Positions 3,544 to 9,981 of a stretch of DNA of 9,981 nt are shown one piece after another. The notes under the pieces were generated by a model that was not told where the DNA came from, did not search any database, and worked only from the letters and a program-made list of their open reading frames with translations. How positions within the stretch are numbered: the first letter of the stretch is position 1; each line of letters opens with the position of its first letter. The stretch lies in IMG/VR virus record IMGVR_UViG_2541047944_000001; one strand, 5' to 3'. A program made the translations under genes and the position numbers. The DNA comes from a virus. Lineage: Duplodnaviria > Heunggongvirae > Uroviricota > Caudoviricetes.

Positions 3544-3691
3544 ATTGCTCCGGCTTCTGTTACTCGTTGCTTAAAACGGTATGTTATCCCCGTACGGATC
3601 ATCATTCCCCGCCTGTTGTTTTGGTGTGCTTCGCTGTCATAGGCTTTATCTCACAGCAGTAAATTAAAATTTTTGCGTTTTAACCCTTCAC

Positions 3692-3914
3692 CTGTTCACC
3701 TTTTGATATTTTCTCTTTTAATTCATAATGTTAAGGGGTGAACAGTTTCACAAAAACTATTCACCAACTGTTCACCACTGTTCACCCTTGAAGCTCAATA
3801 AACAATCAAAAAGGTGAACAGTGAATAGTTTGGTGAACAGTTCATAAATAACTGTTCACCCTATAATATACTGATATAAAAGATATTTATGACAGGGTGA
3901 ACAGTGGTGAACAG
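3692..3914. repeat. Iteron array: nine perfect copies of CTGTTCACC / GGTGAACAG in both orientations plus degenerate copies; putative P4-type replication origin (ori or crr-like) with an AT-rich spacer
   Basis: Forward copies at 3692, 3768, 3778, 3852; reverse copies at 3737, 3813, 3832, 3896, 3906; a degenerate ATTCACC at 3759. An AT-rich stretch at 3861..3892 could be an unwinding element. To my recollection TGTTCACC is the octamer bound by phage P4 alpha protein at ori and crr. The array lies immediately downstream of the alpha-like gene. Confidence 0.75.
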
Positions 3915-3927
3915 TTATTCCATAAGT

Positions 3928-6047: not shown

Positions 6048-6368
6048 TTATCCCCGATTTGAATCAGTATTCGCTTTCTTTATGGCATTTAATGCATCTG
6101 TGGCATTTTCAATGGTGCACCGTAACGAAATATCAAACTGCCCAAGCATTGCCAGTAACAAACCGATATTACCCATATCAATGCGCATGGCCTTTTCGTC
6201 ATAGTCCTCATTTTCTGACGCATGCCACATCAGGCTACCAATTGACGCAATACCCATTGATATATTGTCAGTAGCCCCATCCGCAGCGGAATAAACCTTT
6301 TTAGCAATATCATGCTCACAGTTAAAATGCGGATTAATCAGGTACTGGTAATTTGACATATCAGGCAT
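6048..6368 (-). CDS. Hypothetical protein (106 aa), in an operon with the HNH gene and the primase
   Basis: ATG at 6368 overlaps the HNH stop (6361..6363) by 8 nt. AT-rich. No recognisable motif. Confidence 0.5.
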   Translation of the reverse strand: MPDMSNYQYLINPHFNCEHDIAKKVYSAADGATDNISMGIASIGSLMWHASENEDYDEKAMRIDMGNIGLLLAMLGQFDISLRCTIENATDALNAIKKANTDSNRG

Positions 6369-7038
6369 GGCACACCCCCTGACGAATACGGGCGGCGAAT
6401 ACCATCACGCAGCCAGCCGGAGATTGCTGGCGTGCTTCCTGTTCGCTGGTGGCCTCAATGGTAATCACGCGCGGTTGTGCCGTGCTCAGGGCGATAAAAC
6501 GCCAGATATATTTATTCAGGTTGTGCGATTGCCCATTTCCTTCCCCGTGATTAGCAAATTTACCGTGATGCTGCTCGCGAAATTGTTTTACTACTTGTTC
6601 GGCCTCACAAATATCCGCAAATAGGCCTAGTCGATGGTTTTTTCCGTTAACACGACATTGGGCGCGCCATTTTTTATGCTGCTTACTCCAAGTAACTCCC
6701 TTGACTCCCGATGTATTATTTTTTGCCTTTAATATGTTGTATTGATTTTCTGCGCTCGTTGCTTCGCGGAGGTTAGTAATACGATTATCACTGCGTACCC
6801 CGTTGATGTGATCAATTAAATTTGTAGGCCATTTGCCATAAACATAAAGCCATGCAAGTCGGTGCGCTGCATAAAGCCTGTTTTTAACCCCAATCTGAAT
6901 ATAACCATGACTGGTAAGACACCCAGCAACACTACCATTTTTAACGTTTCTGGCTGGTGGAACTCTCCATGTAAAAACGCCTGTTTCAGGGTCGTAATGC
7001 AGGGTTTCACGTAAGTATTTTTGGGTTAGTTCAGCCAT
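6361..7038 (-). CDS. HNH endonuclease with AP2 DNA-binding domain (homing-endonuclease-like), 225 aa
   Basis: HNH_3-type motif (AHRLAWLYVYGKWPTNLIDHINGVRSDNRITNLREATSAENQYN) followed by an AP2-like domain (SGVKGVTWSKQHKKWRAQCRVNGKNHRLGLFADICEAEQVVKQFREQHHGKFA). ATG at 7038 preceded by GGAGG at 7-nt spacing. Confidence 0.8.
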   Translation of the reverse strand: MAELTQKYLRETLHYDPETGVFTWRVPPARNVKNGSVAGCLTSHGYIQIGVKNRLYAAHRLAWLYVYGKWPTNLIDHINGVRSDNRITNLREATSAENQYNILKAKNNTSGVKGVTWSKQHKKWRAQCRVNGKNHRLGLFADICEAEQVVKQFREQHHGKFANHGEGNGQSHNLNKYIWRFIALSTAQPRVITIEATSEQEARQQSPAGCVMVFAARIRQGVCHA

Positions 7039-7135
7039 GACACGCCTCCAATGTGGAGATACTGGAATAGTCAGGGTGAGTTTGGGTATGCTGTGTTCCA
7101 GCCATAATCGTTACTCCTGTTAACGGTTTGGTTAG

Positions 7136-7179
7136 ACGCCCCGTTACTGCTCCTACAGTGCGGGGCGTTGTTTTTTGTG
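7136..7179 (+). terminator. Putative intrinsic terminator in plus-strand orientation with no obvious upstream plus-strand gene
   Basis: Perfect 8-bp stem ACGCCCCG (7136..7143) / CGGGGCGT (7161..7168) with a 17-nt loop, followed by TGTTTTTTGTG. It lies in the divergent intergenic region between the HNH gene and the RHH gene. Confidence 0.45.
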
Positions 7180-7195
7180 TAATGGTAAGTACAAT

Positions 7196-7235
7196 GGTAA
7201 TTACCATGTAACTATAGTAATCAAGGGTAATTACC
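7196..7235. promoter_or_regulatory. Two copies of the perfect palindrome GGTAATTACC (within a 14-bp direct repeat GGTAATTACCATGT), candidate operator sites overlapping the RHH gene start and the divergent promoter region
   Basis: Palindromes at 7196..7205 and 7226..7235, centre-to-centre 30 bp (about three helical turns). A TATAGT -10-like hexamer (7213..7218) lies between them. The second palindrome abuts the ATG at 7236. Confidence 0.5.
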
Positions 7236-7409
7236 ATGTCAACACCATTAGAGAAACGATCGCCACCATACCAAATGCGACTACCAGAAGAATTTAGAGC
7301 GCAACTTGAGGAGGCAGCCAAGGCAGACGGCGACACCTCATTAGCTACTTGGATTAAACGAATACTCCGCAAAGAATTACAACAGCGCGGTATCGAGCCC
7401 AAAGGCTGA
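7236..7409 (+). CDS. Ribbon-helix-helix (Arc/MetJ-like) DNA-binding protein, 57 aa; candidate repressor; not in the supplied ORF track
   Basis: Translation: MSTPLEKRSPPYQMRLPEEFRAQLEEAAKADGDTSLATWIKRILRKELQQRGIEPKG. The segment YQMRLPEEFRAQLEEAAKADG...SLATWIKRIL matches the Arc-family beta-strand/helix/helix pattern. A strong terminator follows at 7504..7536, and palindromic operators sit at the start codon. Only a weak SD (AAGGG). Confidence 0.6.
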   Translation: MSTPLEKRSPPYQMRLPEEFRAQLEEAAKADGDTSLATWIKRILRKELQQRGIEPKG

Positions 7410-7503
7410 CAGCCAACCAGCAAGCCAGCACACTGATCACATTGCCCACCAGCCGCAAATGTGGCATTGTTGGTGATGCGTTCAAGTTTAGTGTGTATCC
7501 ATT

Positions 7504-7536
7504 GGCGACCGCCCCCGGTCGCCTTTGTTTTATGTG
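7504..7536 (+). terminator. Intrinsic terminator for the RHH transcript (plus-strand orientation), located between the convergent RHH and AlpA-like genes
   Basis: Perfect 8-bp GC-rich stem GGCGACCG (7504..7511) / CGGTCGCC (7516..7523) with loop CCCC, followed by TTTGTTTTATGTG. Confidence 0.6.
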
Positions 7537-7550
7537 CCATCACTCCCCCC

Positions 7551-7739
7551 TTACACCGTCTGCGTTCTGCGAGTGGATGCAAGATAAGCATCGAGATCAG
7601 TGCGCATATACAGCACTTTGCGCCCCAGCTTATGAAAAGGGATTTTTACCTTGCCAGTACACGCCCAGTTAGCAAGAGTCTGGACACTTACCCCCAAATG
7701 CTCGGCAGCTTCTTTGCGGGTCATCTTTTCTAAATGCAT
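7551..7739 (-). CDS. alpA: AlpA / excisionase-family helix-turn-helix DNA-binding protein (MerR-like HTH_17), about 62 aa
   Basis: MTRKEAAEHLGVSVQTLANWACTGKVKIPFHKLGRKVLYMRTDLDAYL is a typical excisionase/AlpA winged-HTH. The ATG at 7739 has GGTGA 5 nt upstream; the track's start at 7748 is a GTG. Position between integrase and replication genes is typical of P4-like and PICI elements. Symbol given by family resemblance only. Confidence 0.7.
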   Translation of the reverse strand: MHLEKMTRKEAAEHLGVSVQTLANWACTGKVKIPFHKLGRKVLYMRTDLDAYLASTRRTQTV

Positions 7740-7811
7740 GAGTATCACCGTATACTTCTGATTAAGAACAGGTATACGTTATTTAGCGATGGGGAAGTCT
7801 TGAAGACAGGA

Positions 7812-7841
7812 AAACCAGATACAAAATCGCATATCTGGTTT
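7812..7841. promoter_or_regulatory. Perfect 10-bp inverted repeat AAACCAGATA-N10-TATCTGGTTT upstream of the AlpA-like gene, followed by two CTGGATT direct repeats at 20-bp spacing; candidate operator or recombinase arm-type sites
   Basis: Arms at 7812..7821 and 7832..7841. CTGGTTT at 7835 and CTGGATT at 7855 and 7875, each 20 bp apart. About 70-100 bp upstream of the alpA start. Confidence 0.35.
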
Positions 7842-7880
7842 ACATGGCTGAAATCTGGATTACAGAGGATAAAACTGGAT

Positions 7881-8567
7881 TTATTCTTTGTCTCCAATAA
7901 CTAACTTAAAATCCCTGTTTTTTTGCGGGGATTTTGGATTCATCCCCGACTCCTTAAGCCATCTCTCTATAGTCCCAACTACAGGGACATCATTCCATTT
8001 ATTGCGTAAGTGCGCGTATATCTCTGCGGATAGCCCGGGTAAACTGGCATTAGGGTATTTTTTCCAAGTGTTACAAGCTATAGATAACGCTGTTGATTTA
8101 TGCCTGTTTGTTTTTCCTTTCTTTGCTTTACTACGGTCTTCACTGATAATTTTCTTTACATTAGCTATATCACGTACTGATTTTAATAAATTCTCCGACA
8201 CTAAAATCGCATATCTTTCACGTAACTGATCTGCAAGTCTGTTGAAACCAAGAACTTCAAATATAATGGCAGCTTTCAAAATATCATTGAATTCTGAATA
8301 TGCACTATTAAATTTTTTATCAAAATCATCTCCATACCCGGCACATACAGAAATATTAACCTTTAAATCCTTATTTTCTATCTCTGACGATAATGATAAT
8401 CTCTCCTCCAGAGACATTTTAGATGGTGTGATATTTGCCATATCGCATATCGTTTTTTTTACAAAAGAAGACGCCAGTTCATATCTAATATAATCTGCAA
8501 TAGTATTCATATCCTTCGCATCATTATGGTCAAATTCTATTGCAGCAATGATTTTATTTTCTGACAT
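7881..8567 (-). CDS. Hypothetical protein (228 aa), AT-rich cargo gene immediately downstream of and overlapping the integrase gene
   Basis: ATG at 8567 preceded by GGTGG; overlaps the integrase stop by 14 nt. By eye roughly 35% GC against roughly 50% for neighbours. No recognisable catalytic motif. Confidence 0.7.
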   Translation of the reverse strand: MSENKIIAAIEFDHNDAKDMNTIADYIRYELASSFVKKTICDMANITPSKMSLEERLSLSSEIENKDLKVNISVCAGYGDDFDKKFNSAYSEFNDILKAAIIFEVLGFNRLADQLRERYAILVSENLLKSVRDIANVKKIISEDRSKAKKGKTNRHKSTALSIACNTWKKYPNASLPGLSAEIYAHLRNKWNDVPVVGTIERWLKESGMNPKSPQKNRDFKLVIGDKE

Positions 8568-9981
8568 TCAAACCACCATTTGAATTAACGATACTAAATA
8601 GTAATGCGCGTTTCTCACTGTCACTCATACTCTCCAGTGCGGAAAGCAATTGCGCATCGATAGATTTTTTACTCTCCACCAGCCCGGCATGTTCCAGAAT
8701 TGCCCGTTCTATCCGTGACGCTGGCTCCAGCAGTTCATCAGCACCAAAATGTAAATACCCCTGCGTTACGTCAGCACTTCGCATAGTACGGTGATTCATC
8801 AGGCGCTTGAGGATGTAATTGCCCACGCCCACCAGTTCGGCAACCGTTCCGAACGTCCGGCGTGCATCGTGCCATTTGAATGGTACAGGGGAGAGCATTT
8901 CATCGTTCGACTCTGGAACAGTAGCCGCGCTTATCCGGTCTATGATGTGCCGTGTTTCCTGAATCACTCCCTTCACACCAGGAAACACCAGAACATCATC
9001 AGCGTTTTTTATTTTCAGTCGGCGGTGGAACATTTCCCGCAACGTATCAGTAATCGGTAATTCGAGCGGATCCCCGTTTTTCGTGGTGTCTATCCAGAAA
9101 AAACGACCGCCCATATTCACGCGATCCCACGTAAGGCCAAAAATTTCTGATTTCCTCAGTCCGGTAAAAAGCGCCATTTCCACGGCATCGCATACCGTCA
9201 CCGCTATATCATCCCTTTCCTGTTCGCCCTGGTCGCGCACAGCAGCTACAGCAGCAAACCAGCGGGGAAAATCATGCAGGCGGATACGTTCCGTTTTTCT
9301 TACCGTTCCGTGCCACTGGCGCTTGGTGCTCAGTACCAGAGTCGGCGGATCCGGTAAAAGAGTATTACCCGCATCATCACGGTAATGATCATGCGCAAAC
9401 CGACACACAGCACGTAGCGCACGCGCCCATAAATCGGCCTGTGCCTTGCTTCCTGTACCAACCCCAGCCCGTAACGTGGTTTTATCAGCACCGAACCATA
9501 CAGCCCCATCAGTGATGGCCTTATGCCGTTGTTCCACCCGTTCGCGGGAAATACTGGCGAGGGTATGGGCCATCCAGTCACCGGAATAATTCTGTAATAT
9601 GCTGCGGTACTGTTTTTCTGTGGCGGGTTTCAGGCGGTGGCCACGATTTTTTACGTAGGCGTCAATCGCCTCACTCAGCGTTATCATGGCCTTGTTGTTA
9701 GTGCGCTTTGCTATGTTCGGATTTATCCCCGTTGTGGCGACTTCGCCAAGGAGTTCCATAGCTTTAGCCCGGGCATTATCCACGCTCAGATCAGGAAAAC
9801 GCCCCAGCGTTGCACGAATAAATTTTCCGTTACGCTTACGGGAAATGCAGAAACTTTTCACACCAGACGAACCTACACGGACACGCAGCCCGTTAACCTC
9901 CGTATCACCATATTCGACCTGTCCATGTTCCGGCGTTGGCAGTTCTGCAATTTTTACTTTAGAGAATCTGAATAATTTCAC
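8554..9981 (-). CDS. int: Tyrosine recombinase / integrase, P4-type (N-terminal arm-binding domain plus C-terminal catalytic domain); 5' end at the window edge
   Basis: N-terminus (...GLRVRVGSSGVKSFCISRKRNGKFIRATLGRFPDLSVDNARAKA...) matches the P4-integrase arm-binding domain pattern. The C-terminus carries a catalytic-type HxxR motif (WHDARRTF) and a candidate Tyr (QGYLH). The ORF reaches position 9981 with a GTG as its first codon, so the true start may be here or just beyond the window. Confidence 0.9.
   Translation of the reverse strand: MKLFRFSKVKIAELPTPEHGQVEYGDTEVNGLRVRVGSSGVKSFCISRKRNGKFIRATLGRFPDLSVDNARAKAMELLGEVATTGINPNIAKRTNNKAMITLSEAIDAYVKNRGHRLKPATEKQYRSILQNYSGDWMAHTLASISRERVEQRHKAITDGAVWFGADKTTLRAGVGTGSKAQADLWARALRAVCRFAHDHYRDDAGNTLLPDPPTLVLSTKRQWHGTVRKTERIRLHDFPRWFAAVAAVRDQGEQERDDIAVTVCDAVEMALFTGLRKSEIFGLTWDRVNMGGRFFWIDTTKNGDPLELPITDTLREMFHRRLKIKNADDVLVFPGVKGVIQETRHIIDRISAATVPESNDEMLSPVPFKWHDARRTFGTVAELVGVGNYILKRLMNHRTMRSADVTQGYLHFGADELLEPASRIERAILEHAGLVESKKSIDAQLLSALESMSDSEKRALLFSIVNSNGGLNVRK

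Follow-up and report, generated by a model that had tools for sequence, protein, structure and literature searches.

Introduction

In Gram-negative phage-inducible chromosomal islands (PICIs), the island cycle is activated by the product of alpA, a gene whose promoter is both auto-activated and induced by helper phages through a factor that has not been identified; a repressor, operator or inducer of alpA has not been defined (PMC6092414, PMC11773190). The switching-on of alpA by helper phages in these islands has been an open question since their description (PMC6092414). Here, we analyzed a window of 9,981 nucleotides (IMG/VR virus record IMGVR_UViG_2541047944_000001), which is part of an 11-kb P4/PICI-like phage satellite in an E. 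coli tRNA-Ile gene. The segment under study, at 7812-7881, contains an inverted repeat and phased direct repeats ahead of an AlpA-like gene. With moderate confidence we propose that it forms the central part of an operator array that regulates the promoter of this gene in cis and is probably bound by the product of a 228-aa open reading frame (ORF) that ends at the array.

The repressor Stl of the Staphylococcus aureus pathogenicity islands (SaPIs) has a diversified part that senses helper-phage proteins, and its operator is located between stl and str. The OmpR sites F1-F3 at ompF and the PhoB boxes consist of tandem half-sites about 10 bp apart inside units of about 20 bp. Sites of recombination directionality factors (RDFs) are direct repeats about one helical turn apart that are also found beside the attachment (att) core (PMC7498355). 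The locus described here has the int-alpA module layout of Gram-negative PICIs, with int, a co-directional gene of the helix-turn-helix (HTH) family HTH_17 and a primase gene, at tRNA-Ile.

A phased four-site array ahead of the AlpA-like gene

On the minus strand, the genes are ordered int, the 228-aa ORF, the intergenic region with the array, and the HTH_17 'AlpA-like' gene. The segment fills the intergenic region from the stop codon of the 228-aa ORF (7881-7883) to the ATG of the AlpA-like gene (7737-7739), and this region is identical in 58 complete E. coli genomes. A first-pass annotation of the sequence had reported a perfect 10-bp inverted repeat with a spacer of one helical turn and two CTGGATT copies at 20-bp phasing, and both are real. 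Read directly, AAACCAGATA at 7812-7821 and TATCTGGTTT at 7832-7841 are fully complementary and are separated by the 10-nt spacer caaaatcgca (7822-7831); the CTGGATT copies are at 7855-7861 and 7875-7881. To this description we add CTGGTTT within the right arm (7835-7841), which is a third direct copy. The plus strand thus carries three direct CTGG(A/T)TT copies, starting at 7835, 7855 and 7875 in exact 20-bp steps, and one inverted copy at 7812-7818, and the 12-mer ATCTGGWTTACA occurs exactly at both 7833 and 7853.

The observation is far from chance. Per window, 0.28 perfect inverted repeats of at least 10 bp with a spacer of at most 20 nt are expected, so that the palindrome by itself is mildly unusual and not compelling; it gains its significance from conservation in relatives. 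As to the repeats, the window has seven CTGGWTT copies, of which four lie inside these 70 bp, and at least three copies per 70 bp were seen in none of 400 first-order Markov simulations.

In the direction of alpA transcription (minus strand), the array comprises a distal direct repeat (site 1, 7873-7882, sense AAATCCAGTT), a second direct repeat (site 2, 7853-7862, sense TAATCCAGAT), the distal arm of the inverted pair (site 3, 7832-7841, sense AAACCAGATA) and its promoter-proximal arm (site 4, 7812-7821, sense TATCTGGTTT). Sites 1 and 2 read CTGGATT on the plus strand, and site 1 adjoins the stop codon of the 228-aa ORF, which the third CTGGATT abuts or overlaps. The spacer between the arms (7822-7831) is fixed in length and free in sequence. 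As the sites are exactly 20 bp apart, i.e., two helical turns, they all face the same side of the helix. The 14-mer AAAATCGCATATCT is directly repeated without mismatch, at 7823-7836, across palindrome spacer and arm, and at 8203-8216 in the 228-aa coding region; the repeat is probably due to chance, because the spacer copy is not kept in the related locus L002.

Conservation of the array and divergence of its recognition word

Loci of homologues of the 228-aa protein were drawn from genomes, viral contigs, metagenomes and an exact-protein look-up. The scan of species-representative genomes yielded two loci only, and the diversity was supplied by the metagenome, viral and exact-protein look-ups. 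The protein has 86 homologues in Enterobacterales, and every locus fetched has the order int, 228-aa homologue, intergenic region, HTH gene. In all loci examined the family gene between int and the HTH gene is translationally coupled to int.

Among 19 diverged lineages, which include E. coli, Pectobacterium, Klebsiella and Citrobacter, the four sites stand in a rigid 20-nt register. The distance from stop to start codon is exactly 147 nt in 11 lineages, and in the ungapped comparison of 11 lineages pairwise identity is 0.86 in the distal arm, 0.95 in the proximal arm, 0.50-0.62 in the spacer and 0.45 in the upstream flank. The 10-nt arms are separated by 8 nt throughout the 22 lineages, or by 28 nt in the Salmonella loci. 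From the end of the proximal arm to the last base of the alpA start codon there are 76 nt in 19 of these 22 lineages; the three Salmonella loci have 80 nt, with a longer spacer between Shine-Dalgarno sequence and ATG. The AACCAG core of the arms is invariant in 18 of 19 lineages; in L013 both arms have changed in concert, by two base pairs each. Substitutions among E. coli variants within the intergenic region all fall outside the four sites. Conserved arms between a diverged spacer and flank, in a register that is fixed relative to the alpA start and to a -10-like hexamer, are what is expected of an operator array.

The two distal sites are conserved in position, and less arm-like elsewhere than in the window. 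Site 1 (consensus AAATCtaGTTTT) and site 2 (consensus taAtCt.Gatat) lie exactly 40 nt and 20 nt upstream of the distal arm in the 19 lineages. The arm consensus is AACCAGATAT, and all four sites have the skeleton A.C..G.T.T in common. Since no lineage but that of the window has AATCCAG in the upstream repeats, the CTGGATT copies are a local, unusually arm-like form of a general feature.

More distant loci depart from this form in instructive ways. The Salmonella lineage (L056, L064, L066) has gained 20 nt between the arms, including an extra half-site, AACTAGATAA; its array has five sites at steps of about 20-22 nt, so that phasing is roughly kept. The extra half-site is flanked by a GC-rich palindrome, CCCCGTAG...CTACGGGG, which lengthens the potential hairpin. 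Distant relatives have three to five sites at about 19-22 nt with other recognition words, namely AGTACT in L067 and L021 (five copies, at positions 2, 22, 42, 62 and 82 past the stop codon), TAAGTA(C/G)T in L020 (four copies, about 20 nt apart), CCAGGG in L005 (three copies) and ARCYGGYT in L006 and L068. The array extends from the stop codon of the preceding gene to a fixed distance from alpA. Because distant homologues keep this architecture and change the word, the conserved entity is an array of three to five sites about 19-22 nt apart, exactly 20 nt in the canonical group.

Upstream of int, sites specific to the type of 228-aa protein were not found, as islands whose arrays differ have the same sequence there. 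In L056, L058, L063 and L065, a near-consensus promoter, TTGACA-N17-AATACT, lies about 95 nt upstream of int with the half-site-like sequence AACCAGAAAT in its spacer, which could permit autoregulation of the operon of int and the following gene. This promoter with its half-site is not present upstream of int in the window lineage (L001).

Promoter and leader of the AlpA-like gene

The AlpA-like gene (7551 to 7739 or 7748, minus strand; 62-65 aa) is the presumed regulated gene, with GGTGAT at 7744-7749 ahead of its ATG. Conservation of GGTGAT(N3-4)ATG suggests that the true start is the ATG at 7739, not the GTG at 7748 given in RefSeq. A hexamer at 7776-7781 on the minus strand (TAACGT here, TAAAGT in relatives), located 30 nt downstream of the proximal arm, is a putative -10 element of the alpA promoter. 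It is conserved in all lineages, and the block around it is kept also where the array differs. The -35 region is weak (TTCAAG, about 7799-7804). If the hexamer is the -10, the dyad center would be near -57 and the array would extend from about -43 to -112; such a layout, with a poor -35, is typical of activator-dependent promoters.

Between array and gene, a leader inverted repeat, CGTATAC-N16-GTATACG (7749-7778, minus strand), adjoins the array without being part of it. The corresponding repeat in relatives is TATCACC-N18-GGTGATA and covers the Shine-Dalgarno sequence GGTGAT. The leader block is conserved despite different arrays, which makes it a likelier target of AlpA or of translational control.

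A candidate binding protein

The 228-aa ORF (7881-8567, minus strand) overlaps the int stop codon by 14 nt and has no Pfam or PHROG family. The N-terminal domain of its product is helical and variable; the C-terminal domain, about 90 aa long, is conserved. A profile of the latter gathered 137 clusters at 50% identity, in which the domain is nearly always C-terminal in proteins of about 190-350 aa, and none of the scanned proteins that carry it matched a Pfam family. At least three to four unrelated N-terminal domains occur in the family on this one conserved C-terminal domain.

The recognition word of the array tracks the clade of this C-terminal domain, and not that of AlpA, of the N-terminal domain of the integrase (Int) or of the ribbon-helix-helix (RHH) protein encoded nearby. 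The window and L002 share C-terminal domain and array while their N-terminal domains differ (228-aa type versus 266-aa type). Conversely, L006 and L068 belong to the same C-terminal clade (49% identity) and have the same word, with Int and AlpA from different families and intergenic regions that cannot be aligned apart from the word. In an exact search of 2.9 million viral contigs in IMG/VR, every satellite-borne palindrome was located between a 228-aa homologue and alpA. Because the word follows the C-terminal clade and the palindromes adjoin its gene, we take the 228-aa protein as the most likely binder of the array, a choice that comes from comparison of sequences.

The predicted fold is compatible with this role. 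In the AlphaFold model the C-terminal domain is a basic helix with a three-helix bundle (predicted local distance difference test 85-93), preceded by a helix of 47 residues. Hints of an HTH are weak (HTH_32, E = 4.6e-4, in the L005 homologue; HTH_Tnp_Tc3_2, E = 0.077), and both are below the Pfam gathering thresholds. The top Foldseek match of the domain is the Pax paired domain (E > 2), and the last 25 residues have a weak local likeness to lambda Xis in a PDB profile search (E about 0.7). Neither the full-length model nor the C-terminal model had a significant match in the PDB. A tblastn search of GenBank phages with the 228-aa protein gave no matches, and no relation was detectable to yfjH, which lies between intA and alpA in E. 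coli K-12 CP4-57.

The array could operate as follows. The C-terminal three-helix, HTH-like domain would read the sites, with AACCAGATAT as the high-affinity form, the two distal sites as weaker direct copies and the two proximal ones as a palindrome. The long helix and the N-terminal domain might oligomerize the protein across the array, and the N-terminal domain, which is swapped between otherwise identical islands, would be the input or sensor module. Occupancy of the array would set alpA on or off and hence satellite excision and replication. A swappable N-terminus on a constant C-terminal domain and operator is what one would expect of a sensor of helper-phage proteins such as SaPI Stl, a role that is hypothetical for the 228-aa protein. 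A broader proposal is more tentative, and we regard it as possible rather than probable: the 228-aa family might supply a large set of P4/PICI-like satellites of Gram-negative bacteria with their helper-sensing master regulator, the N-terminal domain recognizing a helper protein and the C-terminal domain oligomerizing on the array and gating alpA, which would make the protein a functional analogue of SaPI Stl with an unrelated fold.

Several observations weigh against the 228-aa protein as binder. All matches to DNA-binding folds are below significance (Foldseek E > 2, sub-threshold Pfam hits, PDB profile E about 0.7-1). The array adjoins the 3' end of the gene, so that joint inheritance of domain and array could be plain linkage. 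The arms of L013 are altered, yet its C-terminal domain differs by only 11 of 95 residues from that of L029, which has canonical arms, and none of these 11 differences is in the third helix. A consensus promoter scan did not call the alpA promoter. Finally, sites that lie wholly upstream of the -35 fit an activator better than a repressor; the bound protein may activate, or it may block an activator or RNA polymerase.

Alternative explanations

The first-pass annotation had proposed an operator in the alpA promoter region and had named the RHH or AlpA protein, or a recombinase or excisionase, as possible binders. Its regulatory reading was right, as conservation, phasing and fixed register are those of protein-binding regulatory sites; the binders that it named are unsupported, as set out below.

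An alternative that we consider unlikely is that the array is a landing site for a transcription factor of the helper phage or for a host protein; the helper would then turn on alpA directly, with different satellite lineages mimicking the operators of different helpers. In Gram-negative PICIs alpA is indeed induced by the helper through an unidentified factor (PMC6092414, PMC11773190), the sites stand upstream of a weak -35 promoter as for an activator, and the arm difference between L013 and L029 is accompanied by almost no change in island proteins. However, the palindrome was found in only two settings among the 2.9 million viral contigs, in satellites beside the 228-aa gene and, without relation to these, in terminator-like hairpins of AT-rich phages, and the word follows an island-encoded domain clade across different Int and AlpA backgrounds. 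A late promoter dependent on Ogr/Delta of P2/P4 was considered in particular and rejected, as there is no TGT-N12-ACA match in 7740-7900.

The inverted pair could also form, on the gene-sense strand, an RNA hairpin that, at least partly, terminates transcripts of int and the 228-aa gene and insulates alpA, the phased repeats being incidental. As in a rho-independent terminator, the hairpin is accompanied by an A-tract and a U-tract; it starts 40 nt past the stop codon that closes the upstream operon and is co-directional with alpA. Its loop is variable and four pairs have changed on both sides, most lineages have a predicted stability of -10 to -17 kcal/mol, the Salmonella insertion brings a GC-rich inner palindrome, and the same 28-mer pattern is found as terminator-like hairpins in unrelated phages. 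We nonetheless judge this explanation improbable. The stem is AU-rich, with three G-C pairs among ten, and the tail has two to four U and is not conserved between lineages; the hairpin thus falls short of the G+C-rich stem and at least five U in 8 nt by which we defined rho-independent terminators, and a terminator scan made no call. Stability has no strand bias (-13.1 kcal/mol sense, -13.2 kcal/mol antisense), and the hairpin is weak in L060 (-5.9) and L063 (-8.5), both of which retain the AACCAG cores. Of the six core pairs, four are invariant and two depart once each; an element that acts by structure only has no need of such sequence conservation, nor does a terminator require the fixed distance of 76 nt to the start codon. 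In the AGTACT and TAAGTA clades the phased array occurs with no long hairpin, and phasing and register are left unexplained. No known RNA families were found in the region. A secondary insulating role of the hairpin beside an operator function is possible.

That AlpA itself binds the sites, for positive autoregulation or as an RDF like P4 Vis at PLL, is likewise poorly probable. AlpA activates its own promoter in EcCICFT073 (PMC6092414), proteins of the HTH_17/excisionase type bind repeat arrays (PMC7498355), and the AlpA-like gene of the window matches the PHROG 'excisionase and transcriptional regulator'. Against this, the recognition region QTLANWA.TGK is kept in all lineages, including L005, L006, L020 and L021, while the array words are unrelated. 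The proteins of the window and L005 are 88% identical overall and identical in the HTH segment, and their islands have no array in common. Because an identical HTH faces unrelated arrays, AlpA cannot distinguish them and was rejected as the determinant of specificity. A site for AlpA is likelier in the universally conserved -10 and leader part.

The array also differs from those of RDFs of the Xis, Cox, Apl or Vis type, which we rejected as its counterpart. Both lambda Xis, P2 Cox, 186 Apl and P4 Vis arrays and the one described here have small repeated sites, and theirs serve regulation and excision. In the window, however, the spacing is exactly 20 nt instead of the one turn usual for RDFs, the proximal pair is inverted, and copies at the att core are missing. 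The last point was examined in the whole element in CP031134 (L001), which is 11 kb long and bounded by a 49-bp direct repeat corresponding to the 3' end of the tRNA-Ile gene (attL, 3658-3706; attR, 14623-14671). The first-pass annotation had suggested looking for the motifs near the att sites; no cluster was found at either end of the element, and a single 8-of-9 match is the CCA end of the tRNA. What is found there instead are arm-type repeats of their own, (CC)AGGATAC(C/T), three between int and attR (14455-14520) and two beside attL (3740-3775), on either side no farther than about 180 bp from the att core, whereas the array is 2.3 kb from attR.

Integrase arm-type sites or an operator of the RHH protein (YlcI/YnfO-like) are very improbable, even though the integrase carries Arm-DNA-bind_3 and the RHH gene is 340 bp away, as the AGGATAC repeats are the distinct arm-type sites near the att core, the arm-binding N-terminal domain of Int is identical in the window, L005 and L006 with their different arrays, an RHH homologue is missing in many lineages with the canonical array and present in L006 with a different one, and the RHH gene has its own repeat, GGTAATTACCATGT, twice at its start.

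Neighboring genes and other features of the window

The tyrosine integrase gene (8554-9981, minus strand; Arm-DNA-bind_3 and Phage_integrase) is the first of the int-228-aa gene pair. Within its coding region there is a perfect 10-bp inverted repeat with a 17-nt spacer (8952-8988). The AlpA-like product matches HTH_17 (PF12728, E = 1.3e-12) and generic HTH families only; Phage_AlpA (PF05930) was not matched, and the protein gave no alignment with AlpA of E. coli K-12. Further downstream are an HNH-AP2 gene, DUF4222, a D5-type primase, a ClpP-capsid fusion and a small terminase.

The RHH gene is on the plus strand at 7236-7409. The two copies of GGTAATTACCATGT, which is palindromic, are 30 bp apart (7196-7209 and 7226-7239), and the second overlaps the start codon of the gene; the pair looks like the RHH protein's own operator. 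A terminator-like hairpin is found 3' of the gene at 7504-7523. The listed 186-aa ORF at 7031-7591 is probably not a gene. The HNH_3-AP2 endonuclease-like gene (6361-7038) occupies the place of an Icd-like gene or pseudogene in the close relatives L001-L004 and looks like a mobile insertion or replacement in a variable 'Bro' zone. Just beyond the 3' end of the primase gene, at 3690-3915, about 12 copies of the P4-type iteron GGTGAACAG(T) in both orientations presumably form the replication origin, and these iterons account for the perfect inverted repeats at 3737/3767 and 3832/3851.

Comparison with described systems

A precise, conserved cis element is now defined before alpA in one widespread island family. 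The obvious binders have been set aside and one concrete candidate protein is named, with the domain swapping that is expected of a phage sensor. With the element defined and a candidate at hand, the question of alpA control becomes directly testable, and if the 228-aa candidate is wrong, the array is still usable as bait for the true factor.

Among described regulators, SaPI Stl is similar in that its gene is located between int and a lytic-type operon, its operators have dyad symmetry, and the protein is built of modules, one conserved and in contact with DNA, the other diversified. The 228-aa protein has no sequence relation or detectable fold relation to it. Its gene is co-directional with the target, not divergent, and the sites are upstream of the -35 with two-turn phasing. 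Stl is a repressor; the 228-aa protein may repress or activate.

The arrays of OmpR and PhoB likewise place several sites of about 10 bp at about -40 to -110, upstream of a poor -35. In the window, by contrast, the sites are single and 20 bp apart, with the proximal two inverted, and the protein family differs, as the 228-aa protein has no response-regulator receiver domain. A rho-independent terminator, which shares the hairpin and its tracts with the inverted pair, is set apart by the AU-rich stem, the short and variable U-tail, the conservation at the level of sequence and the fixed distance to the start codon.

The PICI module (Fillol-Salom et al. 2018, PMC6092414) is also close. As there, int, alpA and replication genes run in the same direction in a tRNA-integrated island, and an HTH regulator heads the operon behind a promoter that looks activator-dependent. 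The 'AlpA' of the window, however, is an HTH_17 protein and not Phage_AlpA, and it cannot be aligned with that of K-12. The island further adds a conserved gene between int and alpA and a four-site array, neither of which is described in PMC6092414. What is new at this locus is a probable operator array with an unusual two-turn phasing that is tied to an uncharacterized protein family.

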